A stretch of 54,270 nt of DNA, filler included, from Basidioascus undulatus (lineage: Eukaryota): NCBI GenBank assembly GCA_000826855.1. It is 3 parts of 3 records of this genome, joined end to end, with 100 filler letters (N's around TTAATTAATTAA, not from the genome) between each part and the next. Parts side by side here need not be neighbours in the genome. Positions count along the whole stretch, not along the records: positions 1 to 18,036 come from JTLS01000493.1; 2 more parts are not named here. One strand, written 5' to 3'. Position 1 is the stretch's first letter; the number at the start of each line of letters is the position of its first letter. This document shows positions 1-18,036 of this stretch, piece after piece. The translations under genes and the position numbers were made by a program. The notes under the pieces are model-generated. The model searched no databases, was not told where the DNA came from, and worked only from the letters and a program-made list of their open reading frames with translations.

Positions 1-647
1 TCGCAGGGCAACCGCCCACCGACGTTCAAGATCTCTTGCAAGGCATACGACTTGAACATAATGTTGTTATCTCCTTCGTTCCCCGCTCGACCTCCTCCCT
101 GCTCGCCGCGCTCGCCCGCAAGTCATGCAGCTCGTCCTCGACGCGCTCAATGCGCGCAAGGTGCGTCTGCACTTTGGATGTCTCGGAAGCGAGCGAGTTT
201 ATGGTGGACTGCAGAGTTGCGGAGGCAGCCTGTGAAGTATCCAGAGAGGACAATGAGATATGCTACTCAAGATTGACCATGAGTATATGGAAAGACGCAC
301 TTGGTACTCTTGCAGCAGGTAACAGTAGCCCGCTGCTGAGGCCAGAGCGAAGCCAAACGCGAAGCCCATCAACCTATTATCCGTTCACCCATGAGCTCAC
401 CCATGCACCAAACATGCCGTGAATGTGCCATTCACGCCGCTGGTCAAACTCACCCTCCGCGGAACCCACCGACAGGCTGCTTCACCCTCACGCTCCCCGT
501 GAACGCTGGCTCCGGCTCCCGAGGAGAGGCAGGCGGATGGGTGGGCGAGGGCGCGTCCGCCCGACGGGGGATGGAAGTTCCGAACGAACGGCGGATGAAA
601 GCGGGTTGTCTGGGATGTCTAAGGAGGAGGCGGAGTAGTGGAGCCAT
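1..647 (-). CDS. Small mitochondrial membrane protein with coiled coil, function unknown (spliced; 3' end at or beyond window edge)
   Basis: ATG at 647 gives an Arg-rich, acid-free N-terminus (MAPLLRLLLRHPRQPAFIRRSFGTS). It continues VKQPVGGFRGG | intron | LMGFAFGFALASAAGYCYLLQEYQ (TM helix) | intron | heptad-like SSLDTSQAASATLQSTINSLASETSKVQTHLARIERVEDELHDL. Confidence 0.75.
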
Positions 648-870
648 GTTGCTGGGCGGAGGAGAACGAGAAGATCGAGGGCGGAAGACAGTCAGGTCCC
701 AAGGGCGCGCGTGCCAGTTCGTCGCGAGAAGGCGGTCAGTTGGTTCCCTGACGACGCCCATCATCTCAATCCGCATACTGACCCACATATCGAATATCCC
801 ATTTTCGATCTCACGCTGAGATCAATACATTCGAGCTCACGAGGCTTCTCACTCATCTTCGAACGCTCGA

Positions 871-2541
871 ATGCTCGCTCGACGAGCCCTCCCCGGGTTC
901 CGCACCTTCGCTCTGGCCCCGCTGCGGTCATACGCCAAAGCGTATGCGCCCTCGCAGAACTCGCCAAATGCGCATATCGTAGCGCACCTTGTAAGATGTG
1001 CGCTCGTTTCTCGCTCACTTCGTCCTTAATTTAGAGAAATGACGGGGCAAGTGGATAGGCGTGGAGGAAGAGCTGGCGCAGCCATCTCCCAACAAGTTCC
1101 GGATCAAGAGCTTGCGCACGGGGATCCGCATCATCGATGGACTGGGATGGAAACTCGAGAGCGGGGCGCAGGCGAAGGAGGTGTGTCTTTGCGTCTGGAT
1201 CAGAAGGCACATGAGCGCGGCAGCGCTGACTCTTAGCTGTGCAGATCCAAGGGATCGGCGATGGCATCGCTCGTCGGGTGGAAGACGCGCTGCAGGCCGC
1301 ACCCGGCTCCTCCGTGCGTATGATCTTCATTCAAATCCTCCGCCCCGAGCTGATAGCTGTCTCCACCTATGCGTTCTCAGGACCGCCCAGACGAGCCCAA
1401 ATCCGCAGCTTCAACTTTCCTCTCCACTCTCGCGCTCTTGCAGTCTCTCCCAGGCATCGGTCCATCGCGCGCGCGCATGCTGGCTTCCGAGCCACACAAC
1501 TGCACCACTCTCTCCGACCTGCGGCGACTAGAAATCTGGAAGCTCCTCACGCAGGCGCAGCGGACGGCGGTGGACTTCCGGGAGAAGGGCGTGAAGGAGA
1601 GGATTCCGAGGGAGGCGATTGTGGAAGTGGAGGTTCGTGGGAGGATCAAATGGCGCGGTTGAAGAGAAACTTACAGGCAAAAGAGGGGACAGAGAAAAGT
1701 GAAGGGCGCGCTGAGGGAGCTGGATCCAGAGTGGGAAGTACTAGTCGGGGGCTCATAGTTCGTCTCTCGTATCCCACGCTTCCACCCGGTTGATGCTGAC
1801 TGCATTTCCACCCAGTCGACGTCTCTCCCCAACCTCGTCCGACATCGACCTCCTCCTCTTCCACCCGTCGCACACTGCCGCGGTCGAGCCCCGCAGCAAG
1901 GAGGATCCCCTCCGGCTGGTGCTCGATGCGCTCAAGGAGGCTGATGTTTGGGCGGGCAGCTTGTCGGAGGGGAAGAATAAGGCGATGGGTTATTGCCAGC
2001 TGTCGGCGACTGCGCCCTCTGACGCTGAGCCGCAGTCGGAGGCCGAGAAGCCATTCGGACGGATGGACGTCAAGTGCGTTTTGTTCTCTTTGTCTCGCTC
2101 TTCCTCTCACATGTGTTTCGCTCGTGAGGCGCTTCAACTGACGTCGGATGCCCACCTCGCAGTCTCGTCCCGCTCTCCGCGCGGCCTGCGGCACTCCTAG
2201 CCTTCACAGGCGACACGTCCTACAACCAGCACATTCGCAATCTCGCGCGGGAGCGGGGCCTGCGGCTCAACGAGCACGGCCTGTGGGAGCTCGATCCGGA
2301 GACGGGCAAGCCAACGGCGCGGATCCCGACGCCCAGCGCCGAGAACGGGAGCATCGAGGATGCTGAGCGCGGGTTGCTTGAGGTGCTGGGGGACGTGTGG
2401 ATGAGCCCGGAGGACAGGAGGTGGAACGAGATCGCGAGGCTGAAGGTGGAGAAGGACAGGGGGGAGGGCGTCGGTAAGGCGGGAAAGGGCAAGGGCAAGG
2501 GAAAGGGCAAGAAGAAGGGAGAGGCGAACGAAGAGCCATGA
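871..2541 (+). CDS. Family X DNA polymerase, Pol beta-like architecture (8 kDa + polymerase domain, no BRCT), multi-exon
   Basis: Spliced reading: PNAHIVAHLVRCVEEE...KFRIKSLRTG...ESGAQAKEIQGIGDGIARRVED (HhH1), LQSLPGIGPSRA (HhH2), KERIPR, VGGSYRRLSPTSSDIDLLLFHP (GS-x-RR and DxD), GRMDVNLVP (third Asp), LLAFTGDTSYNQHIRNLARERGLRLNEHGL. TGA at 2539-2541. First intron 998-1058. Confidence 0.92.
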
Positions 2542-2789
2542 ACGGGCAGGCGGACGATGCACTACTTTTTCACACGTACTGTGTGCTTCAAATCTCTGTT
2601 TTGCATGAAGGTCCTGCAGTACTGAAAACTGAAAGCAGTCAACCACCCTCTTTCACATTCACGTGTCGTCATCTCTGCGCCGCCAAATTACGTCCGCGCC
2701 ATATCGTCGTGTGTCGAACTGCGCGTCTTTTGGCATCCGATTCGACCTATCCGTATCCACAACACCTGCCTAGCTCATTCAAAGACAGC

Positions 2790-4484
2790 ATGTGCGGTCG
2801 CTTTGCTCTGGGTATTAACCACGACGAGTACGAGGCCCGGATCGAGCGCGACTATGGGCGGCGGTTCGCGCGCTGGGAGGGCAGGGACGAGTTCAGGCCG
2901 AGGTGCGTCCTACTTACTCTTTCTCTTCACACCTTGGGCGAGCTTAACGCGTCCTAAACTGAACATACGTCGCGACTTCTTACAGCTACAACGTCAGTCC
3001 TACAAGCCGCGCGCCGGTGATCAGGGCTGCGCCGGCGCACGTCGACGAATCCGCACCGGCAGCGGAGTTCGTGCAGACCATGGTACGCGTCCTTAGCATA
3101 ATACTACTTACGGTACCAAACTTAGAGTGCGGTGGATAGCGCTGGGGTGTCATTCCTCACTGGCAGAAGGTAAGTGCGTTGGGGCGAATCCCGAGGCGAT
3201 GAAACCCAGCATGCTGATCGCTAGACTTCCGTCCACAGGAGATGCCCGCGCCGGGCCAGACGATGCACACCATCAACGCACGCTGCGAGGCGGTCGAGGA
3301 GGGATCTTCGGGACTCTGGAACAGCTTAAGGGGGTCGAAACGCTGTGTGATCGCGTGCGAGGGGTAAGTCTTGCATTCAATTGTCCACGGCGTCTGGATA
3401 CGCGCTGACCTCGTTCTGGCTCTGGTCTGGCTCTGGCTACTTGGGAAGCTTCTACGAGTGGCTTGCGAAGGGCAAGGAGAAGCTTCCGTACTTCACGAAG
3501 CGCAAGGACGGCCGCATGTAAGTTGATGGCCTGGAAACTGTATGTACCGAGTCGACTGTAATAGACTGACGATGCTGGAGTAGGTTCCTGTTCGCGGGGC
3601 TGTGGGACGTGGTCAACTTCCCAGGTAGGTCCATGCGTCCCTTCTCTTTTTTTTCCTAAGCAGCTCATCCACGTATGGCTCTCGGCAGGCGAACCTCCCC
3701 TGCATACCTTCACGATCCTCACGACCAACGCCGCCCCGTCTCTCACGTTCCTTCACACGCGCATGCCGGTCGTCCTGCCGACGTGGGAGGTTGCGGACGC
3801 GTGGCTGGACTGCAGGAAGGGGTGGACCAAGGAGGTCAGGGGGTTGATGAAGAGCTGGGAGGGTGAGGTCGAGTCGTAAGTTCTTCGAGAACCCTCACAT
3901 TTACCACAGTTGCTTAAGACGGTGTGGGCTGCTCTACAGGTACGCGGTAACGAAGGAGGTAACTTGCAGTCCCCACCAATGCCCTGTTGAACGAGCTTCA
4001 TGTCAAGCATTGACTGACGACCGCGAACCAACAGGTCTCGAAGCCCGGGCCGTCATCTCCCACCTTCATACAGCCCATCTCGCAGCGCAAAGACGGCATT
4101 GCGTCCTTCTTCGCGAAGCAAGCCGTGTCGAAACCGGCGAAGTTCGATACGGTCTCCCCATCCAAGCCGACAACCTCTACCGCCGCAACCGGTCCCTCTT
4201 CGTTCAAATCCGCCATCGCCGCGTCGGAACCGGAGACGAGCTCTCCACCGGCGTCATCTAGCCAGAAACGTCGGGCCGAGGTGATCGACCTGGACGAGGA
4301 GGAGGATGGGGACGGCGCGGATGACCGCGCGGGGGACGCGAAAGGGACGAAAGCGAAGGCTCCGCCTGCGAAGAAGGCCAAGCCGACGCCGACGAAGGCG
4401 CCGGAGAAAGGGGGCGGGAAGGGAGGAGGATCTAAGAAGGACAAGGGGAAGATAACAGGATTCTTCAAAAAGGCTGAGGCCTAG
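2790..4484 (+). CDS. SRAP domain protein (HMCES/YedK family abasic-site protector), multi-exon
   Basis: N-terminal MCGRF (catalytic Cys2), YNVSP, WGVIPHW, TINARCE, KRCVIACEG|FYEW, FAGLWD, TFTILTT, HTRMPVVL. A disordered Lys-rich tail ends ITGFFKKAEA*. Confidence 0.95.
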
Positions 4485-5620
4485 GGATAGGCATCGGAGG
4501 CGGGGGAGAAAGATGGGACAATACGCAGTTCGGGCGCGGGATACTTTTTGGTCGCGGCTCTTTGGCATGGACTGTTGTTGTGCCATTCTGCAGTGCTGAC
4601 TGTGAATATGCCTTAAGGGAATACCAATATGTCAATTTCTTCTTCGTAGACAGGCCCTCGCGCAGTCTGATCGCTGTACAATTTCAACCGGCACTCAATG
4701 AGGATCTCGACGTCGTTGGAACCTGGATAGCATGTTGTGAATACAGCAGAAACAAGCGGTACTAACGGCTTGCAATTCGTGATGTGCCTGAATACTGTGC
4801 AATCAGGCTGCGAAGGGCTCAGACAACGACCGGTGCCGCTGAGAACTTGAGAACCACGAGGAACAGCAGCGTCGACGTAATTTCTGCCCCGAAGGCCGAA
4901 ACTCATGGAACTTCCCTCATGTTCGGGCGTCCAATGCGGATATAGTGCTTTGTGGCAGCCGGACCGCATGATCACGGCGGTGAGAGAGGGGCGACTTTCA
5001 AAGCACACGCGGTCGTGTTCTGGACCTGCTCTGCCGGGCTCACAGCCGGATGAAACTTGATGGTACAGAGCAACCTTGGTTTATTCAATGTACGTAGTAC
5101 CCATGGCGCAATTGAGCGCAGTCAGTATTCGAGATAGCGTCAGTCCCCTGTGCCTCGAAGCAGCTATTCTTGCACACCGTCGTCCGTTCACTCCGTCGGG
5201 TGCTCGCGTGGTCTGCAGCACTTCCACATGCAGACCCACGCAGCGTGAACATTCTGATAAGACTGTCATGCGGCCTCCGGATCAATCTGTCGAATGCCGT
5301 CACTATTACTACGACCCCCTCTCACAGACCGTGCCTGTCGGAATCTGCGAGCCGCGTGCTACGGCCTAAAAATGTTCATGGTGCTCACCTTCCGACAGTG
5401 ATTTTGATTGCGTGAAGACAAATGGGTGATGGGCGGTTGTTATCTAACGGAGTCAAAGTTGCTATAAGTGCGAGAGTCAGAAACGAGCGCTCACGCAGTC
5501 TTTCGTTTCTCGCATCCCCGACCCTTGCTCTTGTAACGCCCTCCCAACTTGCCTCCATCAATGGTGTGGTCACTGTCAGACCCCGATCATGTCCCGGTGG
5601 TGGTATGACCGCTGTCGGCC

Positions 5621-8600
5621 ATGAGTCGGGTTACCAGCTCCGAGTCCCCGGCGTCCGACGAGAAGGACCAGCTCTCCGAGAAGGGCAAAGACCTTGAAGC
5701 AGCCGACGTCGAGTTCCGCACTCACGTTGCCGCTGTTGAGGCTTGGGAGGACACTGGAAAGGAAAAGGTCCTGGGTGAGTTTTATACCACTTCTGTTTAG
5801 ATAAGTCTTCACAAAGTTGCCCTCAGAAACTACCGAGGACTTTGCCACCCACATCGTTTCGCTCGAGGATGACCCGACGTGAGCACCGGCCCCAAACCTT
5901 TATACATATCGCCTTTCTTCCTGACTTGGCGGAATAGTTCGGGTGCGGCTTGTCGTGCTTTGGGGCTGCGCTGGGCGAGGTGCGTATTCACCTGGGGCTA
6001 TTGTGTGGGTTTTTCTAACGCCACACCCAGGTCTTCAACTTCAGGCCTCAGACAGTCTACGTCAGCGCTCTCTGTACGATGTCTATTCCCCGCTGTGCTT
6101 CCTTGGGAGGGACGTAGCTGACTTCAAACGTCAGTCCTGCAACTCAATCTCTTACATTGTCGGGAGGGCTCTCGCCTTGGTCCTTCCCCACCCCGGTTCG
6201 CGCTTTCACAACGGCGGCAAGTTCATGAACTGGCTGAATCCGGGCCCGTTCAGTAAGTGATTACACAGAAGTTTAAGCGATTCTCTTCCGGCTAACCCAT
6301 TCTCGTCAACCCCGGCAGACATCAAAGAGCACGCCGCTGCTCTGGTGATGCAAGTTCGGCCTCAACTAGCGCAACTGCTATCAATGTGCGTTCATCTGGG
6401 CACTTTCCTCATTGGTTTCCCCTTTCGTCGAATGCGGAGGCTCATCAATTCTCGAACAGGTCTTCGCAGTATGACAACCTGGCGGTGACAGAAAGGCTCA
6501 TGTTCTAGCTGGCTCACGCAAATGTGTTCCTGCAGACTGACGACCTGTACAACAACACGAAAATCAATCCTGGGGTTGCGATCTTCACGCTACTTGCATC
6601 CCAACTACGTGAGCAGAAGGAATTTGTTAATCCGGTCGGGGGATTGCTGATGCTCTCGATACTTGCAGTTGGATTCGGCATTGGCGGGCTCCTGCTTAGC
6701 TTCTTGGTCTACCCGACGTGTGAGTATCCGGTAAATTGTGATTCTCGTGATCAGCCCAATCGTAACTAAGTGGGTCGGTTTGTCAAGTCATGCTTTGGCC
6801 ATCCAACCTCATCAAGGTCAACTTATTTGATGCGCTGCACCGCGGACAAGGCAGGGTCCTCTCATGATTGACACTGCAAAGGTTCACGTCGCTAAGCTGT
6901 TCATATAGGAAACCTTGTGCAAGGGAAACGGTAAGTTGCTTGCAATACACTGTTAGGAACTCACTTTGAGTCTGATGCGAATACCCAGTGTGCGCTTCTT
7001 CCGGATCTGAGCAATTGCCATGTGAGGATTTTCCTCTCCGGTTTGCAGGTCAGCAGAATACTGACTCGATCGTATTGCTTTGCCTGGGAATGGGTTCCTG
7101 AGGTGTTTAAACACATCTATTACGGGTGTTCATTCTGTACTGACCGCGTCCCACACAAGTTCGTGGCGCCGACCCTCGCGGGAATCTCGATCGTGTGCTT
7201 GGTACGTCCAGTCGCAGCCTACAACAGGGATTTTACTTACTTGTGGTGCGAGGATAGGTACGCCAGGACTCCGCGTGGGTCAGCCGGCTCTTTTGGTGGT
7301 ACCAATGGTAATGAGGGCTTGGACCTGTTCTCCATCTGCCTGGATCTCTTGAGTGAGCAGGGGCGTGCCATCACTTCTCATGGAGGAGCTTGCTGCATAC
7401 TAACTTTGCACTTTAGTCCTCCGCTAGACACAACTTCAGGTGTGTCCATCCTCGAGCACACAGGCTAACGTTCTGGCTGATATCAATTTGCAATGGAAGC
7501 CCCATTCTACACACCGATCTACACCCAAATCAGCAATTACGCTGGGTACATGCGGCGACCTGTTTTTGCAATTTTGAAAGTTATCTGAACCTCTTTCTCT
7601 TCTCATAGATATGCCGTCTGTGCCATCGTGCTCGCTGCATGCTACCAACAAAACGTCTGGAACGCAATGAGCTTTCCTTCATCTTCCAGAGCTTGTTCTA
7701 CCAAAATGGTATGGCGTACAACCAATGGGCAATCCTGAACGTGCGTATTTTGTTTAATCCGGCCTTACATCCTTCACGCACTTCTTACGAGAACATCGGC
7801 GACGCGAGCAGCCAGGCGACTACACCCTGAATCATAAGCTTTTGGCCGAGCACGGTCAGCCCTGGCAGTCCACCTCGAATGTGCGTTTCTGCCTATTACT
7901 GCATACTTTATACGAACAGCCTGTACTCATCGTCCTTCCTCGTTCTAGGCACTTTACTACATGGCAAGTTGTTGAAATGACGAGGAAGCCCCTTTCCGCT
8001 CTGACAAATCCTCCTTCACAGGGATGCAACTTCAGGTAGGAATTTTCATACTCATTTGAGGGATAAATATCACGTATCGTCATGCCCTACAGCTGTGACG
8101 CCACTATTGTGGTGAGTGATGCTGTGGCCCCCTTCCTTGCTGCGACGACTGACTTGCGGTGGTACAGCACGTTATTTGTATGGGAAGGTGAGAATATCAA
8201 ATTCGGTCCTCAGGAAGCACAATTTTTTTTTTGTTTTTTTTTGGCTCACAGGACATTATCCATGCCTTCAAGGCTTGGTAAGAAACCGGCTCGGTTGGCT
8301 TCCCAGTCAAATCAGCGCAGTTGAAGCTGATCGGTGCCACTTGGGTTCATGACATTCTCAGGAAGAACGGTGAAATCAAGGACCCGCACTACGAGAACAT
8401 GAAGGCATACGAGGAGATTCCGATGTGGTGGTACGTGATCACCATGATTTCGCTGTACTATAAAACAGGTAATGGCATGAGGAGCGTTGCAGGTACGGGG
8501 CGATTATCCTGGGCGGCTTTGCATGGCGGTACGCCCGCTTTCCCTAAATCGTCTTTTCAAATGGCTGAGGTTTAAATAAATTGTTCACAGATGGCTTGCA

Positions 8601-9420
8601 TCTATACCGGGCACAGCGGGTTGCCTTGGTGGGGCCTCATCGCCGCGCTTATGTAAGCTATCATGCGTGCCTGTCCATTCCGATTGGTCGCCGACTAACG
8701 GCTTTATCCGGACAGCATCGGATCCTTCATTCTACCTTTCTTGTGCGGTATGGAGGCCATCACGACGTAGGAACTACGATCCTTTCAATGTGTTGTTGAA
8801 ATCCCCTCAAACGCTGAAGCTCGTCTGCCTTCCAGATTCGCTCCAGAAACCGCTCAGCTGGTAATGAATTACGCCTATGAACGGACCCGATCTGAGCTCA
8901 TTTAAATATACGACCCTCATTTCCAGATGCTTGGAGCGGCTTGCTTCCCGGGATCGCCTCAGGCAAACATGTTGCGCAAAATGCCACAGCACTGACTTAA
9001 CAGGCGGTCTGACCTTCCTGCCTATCAGCGGTTCGAACTCTACAGTGCAACTGCCCTTAAACAAGGGACGATAATGGTTTCTGATCTCAAGCTCGGCCAG
9101 TATGTACGCCAGGGTCTCTCCGCAACCATTCCCCGGCAACCGGTCTAACCCTCACCATTATCATCAAGCTGCCCCCGAGGACGACTTTCTCGGTGCAGTG
9201 CGGTAAGTCCTGCCATAAATCCGACAGCTGAGTAATCTAGTAGCGGTTAAGCAATCTCCCACTTTCTGCAGTGGGCACTGTTATCGGCGCACTCCTCAAC
9301 TACGTCTGTCTCACTGTCACCACACGATGCATATCACCGTCTGTAAGAGAGTGCGCGCTGATCTTGCGTTTGCTCGCACAGATGATCATGGTACCCTCGG
9401 TGACCTTGTGGGCGCTCGGG
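5621..9420 (+). pseudogene. OPT-family oligopeptide transporter, disrupted and 3'-truncated
   Basis: Motifs WLNPGPF.IKEHA, LLASQL.GFGIGG, FAWEWVPE, FGGTNGNEGL, DPHY..MKAYEEIPMWWY, SDLKLGQY..LPPR, GTVIGALLNY. In-frame TGA at 7008-7010 (RVRFFRI*AIA) and an apparent 1-nt frameshift near 7675 (NVWNAMSFP / FIFQSLFYQNG). The C-terminal TM segments are not found. Confidence 0.8.
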
Positions 9421-10369
9421 CGTTTTCAAAATTTGCAACGACTGTTGCGCTATGTCGGAATCTCTTCTTCCCTGGTCTCATTCCATTCTTCTCTGCTTTT
9501 CTTCGTCCTAGGTATTGCCTATGTTTAATTGTAATTGGAATTTTTACGATGCTCGCATAGATGTGATTGATGGCATGCGCACCCCTTTGGCCATGGTCGA
9601 GTCAGCAGTCACTGTTCTTCACCACGTAGCATTCAGAGAAGCATCAAGGTGCCTTTGGGACTCTGAGAACATCAGCTTTGCGCGATAAGCTACTGCTCTT
9701 TCAGTACTCCCATGAAACTTTCACATCCAGGACGTCTGGTGTATCCGCAGCTCCAGGCAGCCATCCTTCCTGACCGCGTCCGGCTGGAACTTGGCTGGGC
9801 CTGACAGCCCGACGCTGCAAGAATGTTCGCTACAGCCTATGCAGACCTCCCGGCCGCGACATCGCAGCGTTCGGATGTACATCATTACACCTGCTCTCCA
9901 ACGTCCGCACGCGCACTGAAAAAAAAAAGAAACTATTCATGTCCTCCCTACCCGTCCTCCCTACCCCGCACCCAGCCGCACCACCGCCGATCCAGTCGAG
10001 CAGCGCGGACGAGAATCAAGGGCGTAGGACGGCGGGAGACGAGGGAAAGCGCCGGAGAAAAGGGCAAGGTATGACTACAACAGTAGAAGCACATGAGTTC
10101 AGGACGAGAGGAGATGCTAGCGCTGCTAGACTGTGTTTGTTTGTTTTTGTCGTTATTGTCTGTTGTGGAGAGAGGGAAGGAGAGTGATGGGACGTCCAGC
10201 CCTGGAAGAGAGGAGAGAGGAGAGGGGAAAGGGAGAGAGGGAGAGGGAGAGTGAGAGTGCCTTGGGACCCAAATGGAAAAACGCAAGAAAGAAGAGTGAG
10301 TGACCGGCGTGTGTTGAGAGGAAAGGGAAAAGGACATGGAGGTGGAAAGCCAGAGAAATCGAAAGCGTG

Positions 10370-11957
10370 TCATGCTGCCTTCTGCTGCTGCGCCCTGAGC
10401 AGAGCGCTCCTGTTTGTGCGAGGGACGATGCTCGGCTGCCTCTGGTGCGCCGACTTCTTCGCGGCCGTCGACGACGTCGCAGTCGTTGCGGACCCTGCAC
10501 TGCTCGCGGGGCGGGGCGGGCTCATAACGGAGGGTGACCTGGAGACGGAGGCGGAAGTGTGGGTGGGGAGGTCAAGCCCGAGCCCGCTCATCTTCGCCGC
10601 GCGCAGCATCGACGAGCGGTTCTGCCGCGCGGCAACGACGGGCGGGGCAGTGCTCGGCACACTGATCGTCTCGCGCCGCTTGTGGCCGGGCACGCCCTCC
10701 CAGTTTGGCTCGGCACGCTCGCGACGGGGCGTGCTGCTGCTGTCCGTGCCCGCGCCGGGAGCGCCTCCTCCAGCGCGAAGCATGGACGCCCGAGACTGGC
10801 GCGGGGCGATACGCGGGGGCGCGGTAGAGGGCACGACGATCTGGAGCGAGAAGCGCTTGTGCCCTGGCGTCTGCGCGAACGGGTTTGGGGGCGTGTCGGG
10901 CGCGGCGGAGGAGGACGCGTCGGACGCGTCGGACGAGGTGGACCCTTGGCAACGGGAGGAGGGGGGCACGCGCGGAGGGGACACGGGTCCGCCTGCGCGG
11001 AGGGAAGACGCGCGCGTGGGCCGCACGGGCACGGTGGGCGCTGCAAGCGACTTGGGGAGAGGGACGACGCGCTTGGGTTGGGCAGGGGTCGCAGCGGGCG
11101 CGGGCGAGTGGGGGGGAGGCGCCGGGGGAGGGAGACCCATGCGCAGCGCGGCAGTGCGGGACAGCGCCGGGGTGATGCTCGCGCGCTTGTGCGATGCCGG
11201 GAGCGGGCGGGCGCGGAATGCACCAGGAGGCGGCGTGCGGCGGACGGGCGTCGCGCCGATGCTGGCGCTCTTGGTCGGAGCGGCGCGCGCAGAGGGAGTG
11301 CGCTCGAGGGTGTGAATGGCCATGATCGACGCAGCATCGTCGGCCCCGCCGACGTAGACGGGCTCAGGGGAGGCCGGCGTGGCAGGGGCGGCAGACTCGG
11401 AGGTGTGTAAGTCGAGGTTAGGGAACAGGAGATCGACTTGGTAGGAGGCGACTTCGGGCGTCTCGGAGCCGTAGACGGCGTTCTCGGAGCGAGTCAAGCC
11501 ATACACGGCGCGTAGACTGCTCCTCCCGTCCCCAACCAGCCTATCAGCATCGTCACGCCTTTTTTAACAGTCAAAAAGTGGGACGCACGAGTGCCCATCG
11601 ACAGCCTTGGCAGCCTGGGGGTCCTCCTCGCCCATGAGCGCGGTCCAACGCTTGACAGCATCGTCCGTGGCCTCAAGAACCCACGCGTGCGCGTCGCCCA
11701 CGAGCCCATGCGCGCAGTCGTGCTTCCTGTCGGAGGAAAGGGCGCTACGCGCGAGGAGCGCGTCGACTGTGCGCGCGTCTAGGTGCATGGGGGCGGAGTG
11801 CACGATGGACAGGTCGGAGGAGAAGATGCGCATCTCGATAGATGTCTGATGCTCGAGCGCGTGAGGGCGGAGGAGGACGAGCGTGTGCCGCTGGAAGAGA
11901 CGACGAGGATCAGCGCAAAGATACGAACCAAGGCGAAGGTGCCCATACGGAGGTCAT
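10370..11957 (-). CDS. Nucleoside-diphosphate-kinase-like domain fused to a long Pro/Ser/Arg-rich repeat tail
   Basis: Model: MTS | intron | RHTLVLLRPHALEHQTSIEMRIFSSDLSIV...AVKRWTALMGEEDPQAAKAVDGHS | intron | LRAVYGLTRSENAVYGSETPEVASYQVDLLF. This follows the NDK pattern RT..IKPD...W..LMG..P..A....SLRA.YG....NAVHGSD. The final exon is the 378-aa ORF 10370-11506. Confidence 0.8.
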
Positions 11958-13340
11958 GTGGACGCGATTCCTGCAGCGAAGGGTGACAGATTGAAATCAA
12001 GAGGTCGTAAGCGTGATGAAAGCAAGCAAATAGGGGGATCGAAAGGGTCGGCTAGCGAGATTGGGAGAATTGGGGTGAGCGGAATGAACGGGGAGGAGGT
12101 CAAGAAGGATGGTCAAAGGAGGAGCGAACAACACGAGGGCGGCGCGATTGCACGGGGCGCCCGGACATCGCGTCGAGCTTGTCACGAAGTATGAAACGCT
12201 TGCGCATCAAGGGGCGGCCCTGAGCCCTGGATTCCCCTGACTTTCTGCGGAAGTTCCATGGCAGACCAACGGTACACCGAGTGCTTAATTACTTACAAGT
12301 GATTCTGAGAGCTTCCAGAAGTCTACGTTGTACCTATGGTGGGTTTTCTGCCAGAAGGTGAACAGGCTATGGGGTAGGTAGCATTGAGGAGCAGCCTGCT
12401 GACGGCAGCTGCGACTCATATGAGCAGAGGATCGAAAGGCAGCTCGGCATTATGCCCAAGACTCGTTCGATAGCCGTGGGGCAGTATTATGCTCTATATT
12501 CCATTGAAGAAGTCAGGTGTAGTTCAGCTGTTCTATTCTCGCCAAGAGTTGGGAGGGATTGGCCAAGCTGAGCGGAGCAATCCCGCTGGATGACTCGTTT
12601 GAGCGGAAAGGGTCTGGAGTTGAAAACTGGAGAGGGCAACAATGGTAGCACGTGCGACTTATCCATTCAAGTAGGGTGTCCCTCAACTTGAGTTCTTTTT
12701 TCTTCTTTCTTTCTCAGAACCGTTTTGCTGCTGTTTATACGCATCGCGTTCCAGGTTATACCTGTGCCAACCACCCATACGGTATGAGACCGGCATCTAC
12801 CTCGGTTACAGAGATGATCAGCTTGCCCGCGTCAGCGCCGATCCCTTGTACACACCTTGAGCTCGCATGGTCCGCCGCCACATCTTTGTCAACAGTGTAA
12901 CGCAGCTTAGGACGATCATGGACTCACGATGCTTGCGCCAGCAATATTCGCAACATAAAAGGCTGTAACTCGGCTGAACCTTCATGAAATGTGAGACTCA
13001 GTGATGGCGGCGCCCGCCGGCAGCCGGTCGGCTAATCCGCAACTGCCCCTGTGCCTTCCTTGCTCGTCCAAAAAATTGGACGAGATCGTCGATTCGGCCG
13101 GTGTGATCCGGGCGGCTGATCCAGGCCTGGTGCTGATGGATGACTTGATCGTCTTCGAATCCTTCCTTGCGAAGGCAGAAGACTCTCACTTGACTCTTCG
13201 TGCACGCTTGGTCTTCACCTCCTGACTCGACACTAACGCCCAGGGACGAAGCTAAAGGCAAGCACTCATACCACGCGACGCGCTCCCTGTTCGATCACAC
13301 GGACCCCATCTCCCTCTCACGCTCTCTTCACACGACCACC

Positions 13341-16218
13341 ATGACCTCCGCCTCATCCACGACCGACTCGGAAAAGGGCGTGAAGCTCGGGTCGAAGCCC
13401 GCCGCGCCCCCGCCGTACGAGGACGGCACTCGCGTTGACCTCCTCGATGCGCCTGCCGAGGCGGACGAGGTCTTCCAGGTTGCGCAGAATGAAGGCATGC
13501 CCGAGTACCGGACGATGACCTGGATGCACACTGGTGAGCTCTTGGTCTGCGTGGTGAGGCCGAGGGGAGGAGCGATGGAGCTGAGTGAGCGGGGTGTGGC
13601 GCAACAGCGGTTTTGTGTACGAAGACGCAGGTGCGCAGGCTATATGATCTTGAGCTGTGAGAGGTCCCATCGCTAAGTTTGGGGATACAATGCCTCAGTT
13701 CGGGTTGGGCGTCCTCTCTATCCCCTCCGCGCTGCACACTCTCGGCGCAGTCCCGGGCATCATTATCCTCCTCGTCCTCGCAGCCATGACGACCTGTGCG
13801 TCCCCCTCTTCCGTTCACACGATCACCCCACGCCACTTTCTTACACACCTTGCGTTACCTTTGGCAAGATGGCAACCACGTCCTGCACCAGTTCCGCATG
13901 CGGCACCGCTCAGTGCACAATGTCGCCGATGTGGGGTTCGTGATTGCAGGACCGCTGGGCAGAGAGTTCTTGGGATTCTTGTGCGTCTTCGTTCGTACTC
14001 TCGTCGCACCGTCCATATCTAACGTATACTCGCTTCACAGTTACTATGTCTTCATGGTCCGCACCCCTTCAAGTCTGCATTATGGGGCAACTGATGCTGA
14101 CACCAGATCTCGCACGCCTAAGGTTTTCGTTGCCGGCTCGGCGATGCTGTCGTTGTCTATCGCCCTGAACGTCATCTCTGAGCACGGGACTTGCACGATC
14201 GTGTCAGTACTCGACTCGAAGTGTTTTTTGAAACCTACGCCCCACTCATAATGATTATACCTTTCCTTGTGCCGGTCGACAGCTTCGTCGCCGTTGCCGC
14301 CATCGCCACCGTCCTCGTTGCGAGCTTCCGGACCTTCGAGCGCATCTCATGGCTTGGTGCGTACCAAATGCGCAAAGTGTATCACCAGTTTATGTTCTGA
14401 CCCCGCTCTCCGTGGTGCAGGATGGGTGGGCGTGCCAGCCATTGTGTCGGTCCTCTCAATTCCTCCAACCCCTCCTCCTGCTGAACACCGACATTTTACA
14501 GCATCGCCGTCATGATTGTGACGATCGCAGTTGGCGTGACCGACCGGGCGGCGGCGGCGCCGCCGACTGGGCCGTTCGACAAGCAAGTTCGTACGTGATC
14601 GCACCTATTCGCACGTGCACAGGTGTTTAATGCTGACGGTGCTACCTCGTGCTGCAGGCGCTTTCAACAACCCCTCGTTCGCTGAGGCTTTCTTGGCTAT
14701 CGTGAACTTGTAAGGAATCATTCGAAGCCGAAAACTCGGACCAGAAATGGGGTTGCAACTGACTGATGGTGACTGTTCCACAGGCTGTTCGCTTACGCTG
14801 GCACTGTGCGTTGCTAAATTATCGTCTCTGCCGCTGCTATTGACGCTGGCATACCTCTTTTCCTACAGCCTGTACGGTTACTATGCACTCTGATACCATA
14901 TGACCTTAAAATTATCTAACTATGCAATACCTCCGCATACGCAGGCATTCTTCTCCAGTGAGTCCAGCTAACGTTCCTTTTGCCTGCTTTCCCTTCCGTC
15001 GAAGACTGACGCATGCTCGTCTCATATCGTCCAGTCATCGCCGAGATGCGTCAGCCCGAAGAGTTTACGAAGTCGATGATCTTCTGCCAAAGCTTCGTCA
15101 CCATCTTCTACATCGCCGTGGGTATCGTCGTGTACTAGTGCGTATAGCCCCGAGTTTCCTCGCTCTGTGAAGGACTCGAGAACTGACATGAAGAGGACTC
15201 TGGCCAACTCAGCTACTGTGGGCAGTACGTTGCGTCGCCGGCGCTGGGATCCGCAGGCTTGTTGATCAAGAAGGTACACTGCTCTGCACGACACAGCCGA
15301 TCCATTTGCCGCCGTACTTACATGTTGCTTAAACGCAGATCGCGTACGGCATTGCGATTCCCGGCTTGCTGGCTACGTCTGTGATCATCACCCACGTAAG
15401 GCTGTTCCATCTATCCTCTTCCGCTCGCATGCAGCCCTCCCGGACGATGCTCAAACGAGCTTGCGCCCGTTTACAGGTCGCCGCCAAGTACATCTTTGTC
15501 CGCACAATGCGGAACACGCGCCACCTGCAAAACAACACGCCGATCCACTGGATCGCGTGGCTGTGCGTTTCGTTTCCTCCTTGCGCCCTATTCTCTCTGG
15601 CTGACGTTTCTATGTCCGTCACAGCACGAGCGTGATCGGCTGCGCGGTCCTCTCGTTCATTATTGCATGCGTCGTACCGTTCTTTGGAAGGTTCGTTTCG
15701 CGACTCCTGGTTGATGCCTGTTGCCTTTTGCTCCAAGCTGACCTCAGTTGTCGTGAAGCTTGCTGGGGCTCATCGGCGCTGTCTTCGCCTCCGTATTCTG
15801 CATTGGCTTGTTGGGAGTACGTTATCTCAACTGCCCCTACTCAGCATGGCTCACATACTCATGAATCGCAGGTCATGTGGATCTTCGACAACCACCACAA
15901 GCTGGCCGGAGGCGGGCCCACCACTCTTTCCTACAAGCTGCTCTACTGCGCCAACATCGCGATGATTCTGATAGGAGGGCTGGTCATGGGTGCGTTCCTT
16001 ATGGGTCTCATTTCTGCTTTGCAGCGTTAACATAGTTTGCACTGGGGCATGACAGGTGCCGGCGCGTATGCAGCAGGCATCTCCATCCGCGACCAGTGCG
16101 TTCGGTCTCAGTTTCATGCTATACCCCTCCTTCCCCGGTTCGAGCCTCACCGCCATCTCTTTCCAGGTTCAATGCTGGTCAAGTCGGGTCTCCTTTCAGC
16201 TGCGCAGACAATTCTTGA
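13341..16218 (+). CDS. AAAP / Aa_trans family amino-acid permease (fungal Mtr-like), many short exons
   Basis: YRTMTWMHTAVLCTKTQFGLGVLSIPSALHTLGAVPG, FRMRHRSVHNVADVG, SIALNVISEHGTCT, FAYAGTPAFFSIIAEMRQP, GQYVASPALGSAG, KIAYGIAIPG, AAKYIFVR. The C-terminus GSPFSCADNS* is typical of this clade. Confidence 0.93.
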
Positions 16219-17039
16219 GATTGTGTGGACGGACACCAAGCATGTTGTAGATGTAGCGGTTGGACAACACATATGTAATAGAGGTGATAGGATAGGATTG
16301 ACATTTAAACATCTCGGAAACATTTTGTTCAGCAATGCAGTGCACAAGCGGTTTAAGAAAAGTACAGATCAAGGCTTGCTGACGGTCGCTCTTCAAAAAC
16401 TTGTGCATGGAGTACAGTAATTTTATTCGCCGCCTCAGGCAGCCAACAGGGTCTAGAAACTTCTGTACAAGCTACTCAGTTCTTGATGTTGGACCAGGAG
16501 GGAGAATGTGTAAGGCTTGACAACTGGGCTGCATGAGCCGCGAGGCAGTGACGTCCGGGATGAGCATACGGCACAACCTGTGCCCCGAGCTCCTTCTGTT
16601 TAGGCCCTGGCGTGCTGCCTTTTATATTGGTGGCCGTTGGCCGTGCGTACATCAAGCCTCAGCTGGCCCTGCCTGGCCCTGCTGCTGGCCTCGATCGATC
16701 GCCTCGCTGGCCGCTTCGGACTGCGTTCATGGACGGGCGTGTGCTGTGAGGCGCATGGGATGCAGAATTGGTGCTTGTTCGTCATGACGCTGGGAGAAGA
16801 ACAGAAAATAAATGAACTTTTCAAGAACTCCCGGACTGCGGTTCTGTTGAGTGGTTTACGGAGCTTTACAGTGCGAGAGGCACAATGCAATGGCAGTCTC
16901 TGCGTCAAAGTCCGGCTTTTGCACGCTCTTGAAACCCACTTGCGTCTTCATATGAGTCACTGAGTCAGAGAAATGCACTTGATTAAGTTACTCTTGCATG
17001 CTTTAACGGTGTGCGTGCAATTGAACTGCAACCGTGACA

Positions 17040-17900
17040 GCTTGCGGCTCACCTACTCACCTCTCAAAGCCTAACGGACCGCGGACTGCACGCGCCAAGC
17101 TGCAAATGCTGAGTCGACCTTCGGAGCTTTCATAGAGGGTCCTTGCAGATAACTTGTAACTCTTTCTCAACTTGTCTCAACTAACTTTGAGAAAGAGGGA
17201 GCCAAGGCAGTTCTCGTGGGATGTTTACGCCAGCACGGAGTCTGGCGTTACGTCGGACGAGACGTCCTTCAGCGTGACCATCCCTTCGGATCTTGGCTCT
17301 AATGCGTTCCCTGTTCTTCCATTATCTGTCATCCGGAGCTCTATTGAATGCTTGATTTTTCAGGTGCTCCAAGGGTGGCGCTTGCGTTCTGCAATGGGTG
17401 CTTTCCTCTTGTTCGTCTGCGGATCCTGAGCGCACTGTAACGATCCAACAATTCCCCATGTCAGTACTGATACGCTGAGTCTATCTAGTAAGTGTATGCA
17501 GCATAGCTGGTCAAACATTCCGCTCATTTAATCAATGATCCCTCAGCCAGAACGAGTCCTGCGTCGACTTCACTGTCGGTGGTTCGGGCGGTGGCTCGGT
17601 CGGCTCCGTAAACATCACATATTTATCACTTAACGACGGCATCCATTCTGATCACGTTGAAACTGTGCCAGGCGTCGTATTCGGCCGCTGGCTCCTCCAC
17701 GCCTGCTGGAGGCACTTCGACTAGCGCTGCGGCCGAGTCCGCTTCTTCGGTGAGCACACCATTTTAATTTGATAGCAAGCACATTCCCCTGACTATACGT
17801 TTCGATTGAAAGGCCCCCGCTACGTCTTCCGAGGCCGCCTCCTCCACCACCGGTTGCAGCCACCGCCACCGTTGCGGCCGGCAAGCGCCGTCTGTACTGA
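17040..17900 (+). pseudogene. Remnant of an AA16-like lytic polysaccharide monooxygenase with Ser/Ala-rich tail
   Basis: Fragments SWDVYASTESGVTSDETSFSVTIPSDLGS | CSKGGACVLQW | ESCVDFTVGGSGGGS match, from recall, the C-terminal half of fungal AA16 proteins. No intact signal peptide or N-terminal His exon found upstream. Confidence 0.55.
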
Positions 17901-18036
17901 GCGATGGTCATGTTTCCGCCATTTCCTTAGATACATTCTACCAGAGGGGAGAACTTCAAAGCCCAGCTTCACATCTTACCCTTCAACCCCCACCCCCCCT
18001 TACTCCCGCTTGTTACGGCCCAGGCGGTCCCTCATC

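Follow-up and report, generated by a model that had tools for sequence, protein, structure and literature searches.

A family X DNA polymerase (PolX) gene lies at positions 871–2541, on the plus strand, of a 54,270-nucleotide stretch of DNA from Basidioascus undulatus (assembly GCA_000826855.1, with positions 1–18,036 taken from JTLS01000493.1), referred to below as the window. From the composition of the leader and from the relatives of the protein, we infer mitochondrial import as its best reading, and with it the cleavage site, activity and substrate. With slightly better than even confidence, we propose that the gene encodes a BRCT-less PolX resembling DNA polymerase beta (Pol beta), which carries a cleavable presequence of ~21 residues, would be imported into the mitochondrial matrix, and would there fill gaps in mitochondrial DNA (mtDNA) without performing the 5′-deoxyribose phosphate (dRP) lyase reaction.

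The proposal turns on the first residues of the protein:

871–933, plus strand: predicted cleavable presequence (residues 1–21), called from its composition, its motifs and the leaders of orthologues, with a putative cleavage site.

A matrix presequence occupies the N-terminal ~15–50 residues, is rich in Arg and hydroxylated residues and lacks acidic ones, and the R-2/R-3 processing motif reads R-x-[YFL]|[SA]. Both of these properties, the composition and the motif, are present in the leader of the window protein. In accordance with the original prediction of an Arg-rich, acid-free leader with an R-x-Y|A site, the first 40 residues hold four Arg, one Lys and neither Asp nor Glu. An acidic residue first appears at position 45, and an acid-free run of 44 residues has a chance of ~0.0012, given 14.2% Asp plus Glu in the whole protein. 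The R-x-[YFL]-[AS] pattern occurs twice, as R-T-F-A at residues 11–14 and as R-S-Y-A at residues 19–22, and the second (R19-S20-Y21|A22) is encoded at 925–936. As to the potential for an amphipathic helix, the hydrophobic moment on the Eisenberg scale peaks at 0.71 over 11 residues and at 0.54 over 18 residues. The leader directly abuts helix 1 of the 8 kDa domain, with 29 residues standing ahead of the N-S-P-N of that helix. Because the N-S-P-N in orthologue P0139 aligns with Pol beta residues 9–12, the claim that the leader passes straight into the 8 kDa domain holds as well. Following the general rules for presequences, from which the import and processing steps are taken, the PolX would be made as a nuclear-encoded precursor and imported into the matrix by its N-terminal presequence; the matrix processing peptidase would cut at R19-S20|Y21, an Icp55-type aminopeptidase would then take off Tyr21, and the mature protein would begin a few residues ahead of the 8 kDa domain.

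A similar leader recurs among the relatives of the protein, the basidiomycete clade described below. In a survey of 42 clade entries including the window protein, helix 1 is preceded by at least eight residues in 19 (18 orthologues and the window protein), and these extensions run to 12–43 residues, with 31 in the window protein. We compared the first 20 residues of the 18 orthologues with those of 68 non-clade PolX control proteins of at least 300 residues that start with Met, using the Mann–Whitney test for net charge and the Fisher test for the motif. The orthologues have more Arg (median 3 vs 1, P = 2.8e-5), less Lys (0 vs 1, P = 4e-4), less Asp plus Glu (0 vs 2, P = 1.3e-7) and a more positive net charge (+3 vs −0.5, P = 1e-5). 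The pattern R-x-[YFL]-[SA] falls within residues 9–45 in 11/18 orthologues vs 7/68 controls (Fisher 2e-5), and in most members it stands immediately ahead of the [ST]-x-P-N start of helix 1. The leaders of three distinct Serendipita orthologues end in R-K-Y-S, R-T-Y-S and R-R-Y-S, right before the 8 kDa domain. Whether orthologues share the presequence had been named as a check on the original prediction, and an Arg/Ser-rich, acid-poor leader is indeed found in the 18 orthologues, which are Agaricomycete-type entries, and in the three Serendipita proteins, and not in the controls. As a separate observation, the Serendipita vermifera model P0178 has ~280 unrelated N-terminal residues fused to a PolX that ends in the palm, with a presequence-like stretch and R-A-Y-A located internally, an arrangement that suggests a merged gene model.

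The same extension could instead be basic and disordered without serving in targeting, which would make the protein a nuclear-only, Pol-beta-like gap filler. We regard this as quite unlikely. In its favor, vertebrate Pol beta is mainly nuclear and likewise has a short basic stretch at its N-terminus, and the leader of P0139 is disordered in its AlphaFold model: residues 1–21 have a predicted local distance difference test score (pLDDT) below 50, as do residues 437–499, with a mean of 74.8, a first helix at residues 31–46 and no additional domain. However, the leaders are Lys-poor and Arg/Ser-rich, as the Lys and Arg medians given above indicate, and R-x-Y-S/A directly precedes the domain in lineages as distant from one another as Sebacinales, Russulales and that of the window protein. 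This conservation ahead of the domain is what would be expected of a processing site, and not of a generic basic tail.

Several observations weigh against mitochondrial import and gap filling, including those on the thumb exon, the active-site residues and the C-terminal tail that are given with those parts of the protein below. Among the 42 clade entries, 23 lack helix 1 plus an extension; most of these begin within the polymerase core and appear to be gene models that miss a short first exon, and exon 1 of the window gene was likewise missed by the open reading frame (ORF) track. A few others have N-termini unlike a presequence, strongly acidic in P0169 and with acidic stretches in P0129 and P0008. 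The strict R-x-[YFL]-[SA] motif is missing in 7/18 complete orthologues, whereas three controls have a net charge of at least +4 and no acidic residue in their first 20 positions. The composition test is crude, and its P values overstate independence because the orthologues are related.

The leader belongs to a gene of seven exons, which is laid out as follows:

871–2541, plus strand: whole PolX gene, seven exons, with a coding sequence of 1272 nt open throughout, 423 residues.
871–997, plus strand: exon 1 (127 nt), with the start codon, the leader and, from N30 (nt 958), helix 1 of the 8 kDa domain.
998–1058, plus strand: intron 1 (61 nt, GTGCGC..TAG), placed by the family junction pattern.
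1059–1180, plus strand: exon 2, helices 1–3 of the 8 kDa domain, by alignment with orthologues.
1245–1313, plus strand: exon 3, the helix-hairpin-helix of the 8 kDa domain, by HHH_8 (E 0.26 on 23 residues) and alignment.
1381–1632, plus strand: exon 4, fingers subdomain including the second helix-hairpin-helix (PF10391, 1e-5).
1693–1757, plus strand: exon 5, beginning of the palm (G-G-S-Y), by alignment.
1816–2073, plus strand: exon 6, palm (PF14792, 1.1e-5).
2163–2541, plus strand: exon 7, thumb (PF14791, 4.8e-14), basic tail and stop codon (2539–2541).

All six introns, of 58–89 nt, are of the GT..AG type. Pfam was run on six single-exon translations of the gene, and membership of family X is indicated by the fingers, palm and thumb, each of which is matched from one exon; the translations of exons 1 and 2 gave no Pfam match. 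The 8 kDa domain is recognized by alignment, in that exons 1–3 can be aligned column for column with orthologues that have HHH_8 at 1e-12 to 1e-13, and they correspond, via P0139, to Pol beta residues 9–77. The exon 1 peptide quoted in the original prediction is encoded at 871–990. The start codon at 871 is the first ATG past the in-frame stop at 817–819, which lies 51 nt 5′ of it. Among the other plus-strand ATGs in 640–1000, the one at 646 is in frame but 5′ of that stop, and those at 944, 968 and 996 are out of frame with ATG 871. Only one in-frame ATG occurs before residue ~140, and the next in-frame Met is past the 8 kDa domain.

The boundaries of intron 1 are less sharply defined. We scored 20 in-frame GT..AG pairs against the family profile, and the intron at 998–1058 that had been predicted originally scores 214.7 bits vs 213.7 bits for 991–1051 (GTAAGA..AAG), which is equal to it in length and frame; the junction residues are V-R-C for 998–1058 and W-I-G for 991–1051. 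The boundary is thus ambiguous by 7 nt on profile score. Russulales-type orthologues read L-x-[RK]-C-[LI]-x-E-E at the exon 1/2 junction, and this pattern favors 998–1058, which is the choice we prefer. The predicted intron therefore stands as one of six GT..AG introns and on the family pattern, but its profile score is no better than that of its neighbor. The leader of 40 residues is identical under both choices. That exon 1 is non-coding, or that the true start lies elsewhere, is a reading that the 7-nt ambiguity might seem to invite, and it is almost certainly wrong: helix 1 of exon 1 aligns without gaps to orthologues and with equal spacing to the next conserved motif, the next in-frame Met lies beyond the 8 kDa domain, the upstream stop and the neighboring gene confine the 5′ side, and the window leader of 31 residues falls within the orthologue range.

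The 5′ side of the gene also bears on the BRCT domain, in whose place the presequence had been said to stand:

648–870: intergenic region of 223 bp, from the putative ATG of the divergent gene (647, minus strand) to ATG 871, which holds the stop at 817–819.

Since the in-frame stop lies 51 nt upstream and the divergent gene 223 bp away, there is no space for an upstream BRCT, and no BRCT domain is present or possible upstream of the window PolX. None was matched by Pfam in the single-exon translations of the window protein, exon 1 being without any match. By Pfam, BRCT domains occur in 6/78 PolX proteins scanned, namely in 6/62 non-clade proteins, the six being long ones, and in 0/16 clade members; none is listed among the 27 proteins matched by the clade profile. 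No other PolX pieces occur in the 54 kb window, where the profile matched 4/1438 six-frame ORFs, all inside this gene. Long PolX proteins with N-terminal extensions and BRCT domains are described for S. cerevisiae, S. pombe, C. cinereus and A. fumigatus (PolX1/PolX2) (PMC12828229). The window protein has the family X core in common with these fungal Pol4, Pol lambda and Pol mu enzymes, and differs from them in length and in the BRCT domain. Of the original claim, the absence of BRCT stands, but the replacement does not: the gene falls in a BRCT-less, Pol-beta-like clade that is separate from the long fungal PolX, so that no domain swap is implied.

Pol beta is the polymerase that the window PolX most resembles in sequence and predicted fold. 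For orthologue P0139, the match to Pol beta is at 9.4e-29 (residues 27–223 to Pol beta residues 9–205) and that to Pol lambda at 4.9e-19, and its match to Leishmania Pol beta (4p4m), at 2.9e-17, is weaker than that to the human enzyme. In a Foldseek search with P0139, the top 50 PDB matches are all Pol beta. For the palm exon of the window protein itself, PDB matches at E ≤ 0.01 number 38, every one of them Pol beta (the best at 1.5e-5). The thumb exon does not point to Pol beta in particular: its PDB matches, none of them below 9e-5, comprise Pol mu, Leishmania Pol beta and Pol lambda. Like vertebrate Pol beta, the window protein has no BRCT, is laid out as an 8 kDa domain followed by fingers, palm and thumb, and possesses the Asp triad, Arg283 and Asn279. 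Unlike vertebrate Pol beta, in which the corresponding point of helix 1 is residue 9, it has 29 residues preceding that point; it has Arg, Gly and Ser in place of Lys72, Lys68 and Lys84 and Ala in place of Tyr271; and it has a basic C-terminal tail in addition.

The relatives of the protein are short PolX proteins of mushroom-forming and allied fungi. An exhaustive search of representative sequences with the thumb exon gave 147 matches at E ≤ 0.001 (best 39% identity); none of them reaches 1e-10, that is, no close orthologue was found in that search, and a word-indexed search with the same exon for longer proteins found none among 713 candidates scored. Proteins of 330–500 residues with a distinctive thumb stand out among the 147 matches, and a clade profile (A2) built from 12 distinctive-thumb proteins retrieved 27 proteins at E ≤ 1e-10. 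Twenty-two of these are named, and 21/22 are from Agaricomycetes (Hohenbuehelia, Leucogyrophana, Amylostereum, Pleurotus, Gelatoporia, Auriscalpium, Artomyces, Bondarzewia, Dentipellis, Russula, Lactarius, Astraeus, Vararia, Multifurca and Lentinula); the remaining named match, in Lipomyces, is weak. The databases call the A2 matches ‘hypothetical protein’, ‘Nucleotidyltransferase’, ‘DNA polymerase’ or ‘DNA polymerase IV’. Members from Serendipita (Sebacinales) came from an additional search with P0005. The nearest Atlas cluster has 120 members, and Basidiomycota is the commonest phylum among the 98 for which the phylum is known. On the clade profile, the spliced window protein scores 214.7 bits, where generic PolX proteins score ~130–170 and core members 290–590.

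In a quick IQ-TREE phylogeny of 67 rows and 351 columns, built without a named Pol beta or a labelled kinetoplastid sequence, the window protein branches off first within a clade of 25 rows, which has a value of 99 in the Shimodaira–Hasegawa-like approximate likelihood-ratio test (SH-aLRT). This clade takes in 18/18 core members and 6/8 of the divergent members sampled. In contrast, 18/20 of the long PolX sampled form, together with seven short ones, a separate 25-row clade (SH-aLRT 96). The window clade adjoins short Pol-beta-like PolX at 85–90 SH-aLRT (unstarred). On this tree, the window protein thus branches at the base of a basidiomycete clade that stands apart from the long fungal PolX. 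Two traits of the window palm (1816–2073) agree with the basal position: it is without the long Pro-rich insertion that follows the H-P-S motif in Agaricomycete members, and it keeps a Pol-beta-like K-x-M-G-x-C-Q-L where those members have K-W-Q-G-I instead.

The catalytic residues of the polymerase are retained in the window protein, whereas those of the lyase are replaced. The positions concerned, all assigned by alignment, are:

1263–1265, plus strand: Gly at the position of Pol beta Lys68.
1275–1277, plus strand: Arg at the position of Pol beta Lys72.
1841–1849, plus strand: D-x-D motif (D-I-D).
2066–2068, plus strand: third catalytic Asp.

In Pol beta, Asp190, Asp192 and Asp256 are the catalytic carboxylates, residues 271–280 (Y-F-T-G-S-D-I-F-N-K) form the deoxynucleoside triphosphate-binding motif, and the dRP lyase employs Lys72 as the Schiff-base nucleophile, Lys68 for 5′-phosphate binding and Lys84 as a back-up nucleophile (PMC8375306). 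Within the nucleotide-binding motif, the window protein keeps F272, T273, G274 and N279, and also R283 beyond it; positions 271, 275 and 278 are occupied by Ala, Asp and Tyr, respectively. In the lyase domain, in addition to the Arg and Gly listed above, it has Ser at the Lys84 position, so that all three dRP-lyase lysines are replaced, and Arg at the Lys35 position, which is Lys in 32/37 aligned clade members. The replacements are largely shared by the aligned clade members, with Arg at position 72 in 33/36, Gly at position 68 in 32/36 and Lys at position 84 in 0/36. With Lys72, Lys68 and Lys84 all replaced, canonical dRP-lyase chemistry by the window protein is unlikely. Under the mitochondrial gap-filling proposal, the mature protein would bind gapped or nicked mtDNA with both of its helix-hairpin-helix motifs and with the basic tail at its C-terminus, and would fill short gaps using the intact Asp triad, and the dRP-lyase step of Pol beta is probably not performed by it. 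The original idea of a fungal mitochondrial repair polymerase is accordingly sustained in part: leader composition, motif and conservation among orthologues point to import, but repair in the sense of base excision repair is doubtful, as the lyase lysines are replaced.

Across the clade, even the polymerase residues are frequently degenerate. The full D-D-D triad is found in 13/46 clade members, and all three positions are acidic in 20/46. Of the 33/46 without the full triad, most belong to the 26/46 that are non-acidic in at least one position (in P0176, by deletion of the third). Russulales-type members mostly have D-T-D, E-T-D or E-E-D, and three aligned Pleurotus members (four were retrieved) have S-D-N. 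The triad is intact in the window copy, in the members from Serendipita and in several from Agaricales and Polyporales. This distribution suggests that polymerase chemistry has been lost in many mushroom lineages in which the leader and the DNA-binding parts were retained. With the full triad in 13/46 members, the conserved role of the clade may be other than polymerization.

Taken further, the same counts lead to a reading in which the protein is a former polymerase turned mitochondrial DNA-binding or nucleoid factor, with synthesis no longer under selection; for the window protein we consider this very unlikely. The leader, the helix-hairpin-helix and the basic tail persist in the members without the full triad, and inactive PolX cores are known in prokaryotes (PMC9226535). 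The window protein, however, has D-D-D, Arg283 and Asn279, intact triads also occur in Serendipita and in several Agaricales and Polyporales members, and some of the apparent substitutions may be gene-model or alignment errors. The noncanonical PolX proteins without polymerase activity described in PMC9226535 are bacterial and reliant on a PHP nuclease domain. Noncanonical prokaryotic PolX and the clade thus have in common PolX cores with degenerate catalytic carboxylates, in 33/46 clade members, and they differ in that the fungal proteins have no PHP domain and the triad of the window protein is intact.

A wider scenario accommodates both the active site of the window protein and the erosion seen elsewhere, and we offer it tentatively, as possible though well short of even. 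The clade would be an undescribed third basidiomycete PolX lineage, which arose from a Pol-beta-like ancestor, acquired a mitochondrial presequence and lost the dRP-lyase lysines; most mushroom lineages would then also have lost the carboxylates, kept the DNA-binding modules and gained AT-hook-like tails, to become a mitochondrial gap-binding or nucleoid factor, while the window copy would represent the ancestral, still active state.

The tail bears on where in the cell the protein acts:

2476–2520, plus strand: Lys/Gly-rich C-terminal tail, net charge +5, by sequence.

Basic tails with a net charge of at least +4 occur in 33/45 clade members. The window tail is a Lys/Gly repeat with no GRP core, and GRP-type AT-hook cores follow the thumb in 17/45 members, with one to three in each and three in both P0139 and P0164. 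Such basic C-terminal tails could serve as nuclear localization signals, and the protein may accordingly be dual targeted, to mitochondria via the leader and to the nucleus via the basic tail, with gap filling in both genomes. We hold this to be unlikely, yet the least strained of the alternatives. The frequency of basic tails speaks for it, as do the K/R clusters in the tails of Serendipita members and the precedent of trypanosomatids, in which Leishmania Pol beta is nuclear and other Pol beta enzymes are mitochondrial (PMC8375306). The AT-hook cores, on the other hand, are DNA-binding and not import motifs. Any dual location would have to arise from one protein, because only one in-frame ATG is available before residue ~140.

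Import into mitochondria would place the window PolX beside a known type of organellar enzyme. Pol-beta-type enzymes dedicated to the organelle genome occur in trypanosomatids, and the kinetoplastid mitochondrial Pol beta enzymes retain Lys72, Lys68 and Lys84 as well as dRP-lyase activity (PMC8375306). The kinetoplastid enzymes, which were the functional model of the original prediction, thus resemble the proposed window enzyme as organelle-dedicated Pol-beta-type polymerases, and are unlike the fungal clade in their retention of the three lyase lysines.

The literature credits fungi with one or two PolX enzymes, which are of Pol4, lambda or mu type and extended at the N-terminus (PMC8375306, PMC12828229). 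The fungal PolX survey started from human TdT with a length filter of 400–2000 residues; it names two PolX genes in A. fumigatus, and its excerpted text does not mention mitochondria (PMC12828229). The same source gives C. cinereus both Pol lambda and Pol mu, and this literature statement is the basis for the presumed co-occurrence of clade PolX and BRCT-type PolX in one species. A search of Creative Commons-licensed PubMed Central papers and bioRxiv full text turned up no paper on a fungal PolX that is mitochondrial or Pol-beta-like; as far as we found, the fungal clade is catalogued in databases yet undescribed.

If the proposal is true, fungal mitochondria would have, across Basidiomycota, a nuclear-encoded DNA polymerase in addition to Pol gamma. 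This second enzyme would be a counterpart of the mitochondrial Pol beta of kinetoplastids and of the one reported from mammals (titles cited in PMC8527207), and it would offer a tractable system for the role of a lyase-less Pol beta on mtDNA. The loss of catalytic triad residues inside the clade poses an evolutionary puzzle of its own.

Downstream of the PolX gene, at 2790–~4481 on the plus strand, lies a multi-exon gene for an SRAP (HMCES/YedK-type) abasic-site protein, which begins Met-Cys-Gly-Arg and matches PF02586 at 1.2e-13 on 3565–3876 and at 4.6e-5 on 3218–3364. Two DNA-damage genes are thus placed side by side. The C-terminal region of the SRAP protein is acidic, then Lys-rich, and ends in I-T-G-F-F, which we take to resemble a PCNA-binding box.

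On the opposite side, the divergent gene occupies 26–647 on the minus strand, with a putative ATG at 647. For its identity, Pfam gave only weak coiled-coil matches below the cut-off, and Atlas scores do not exceed 0.80. The product has a hydrophobic segment (ORF 199–384) and a coiled-coil segment (26–262), and its opening stretch is Arg/Leu-rich, acid-free and presequence-like. Should the divergent protein be mitochondrial, two mitochondrial proteins would have the 223-bp spacer as their common promoter.

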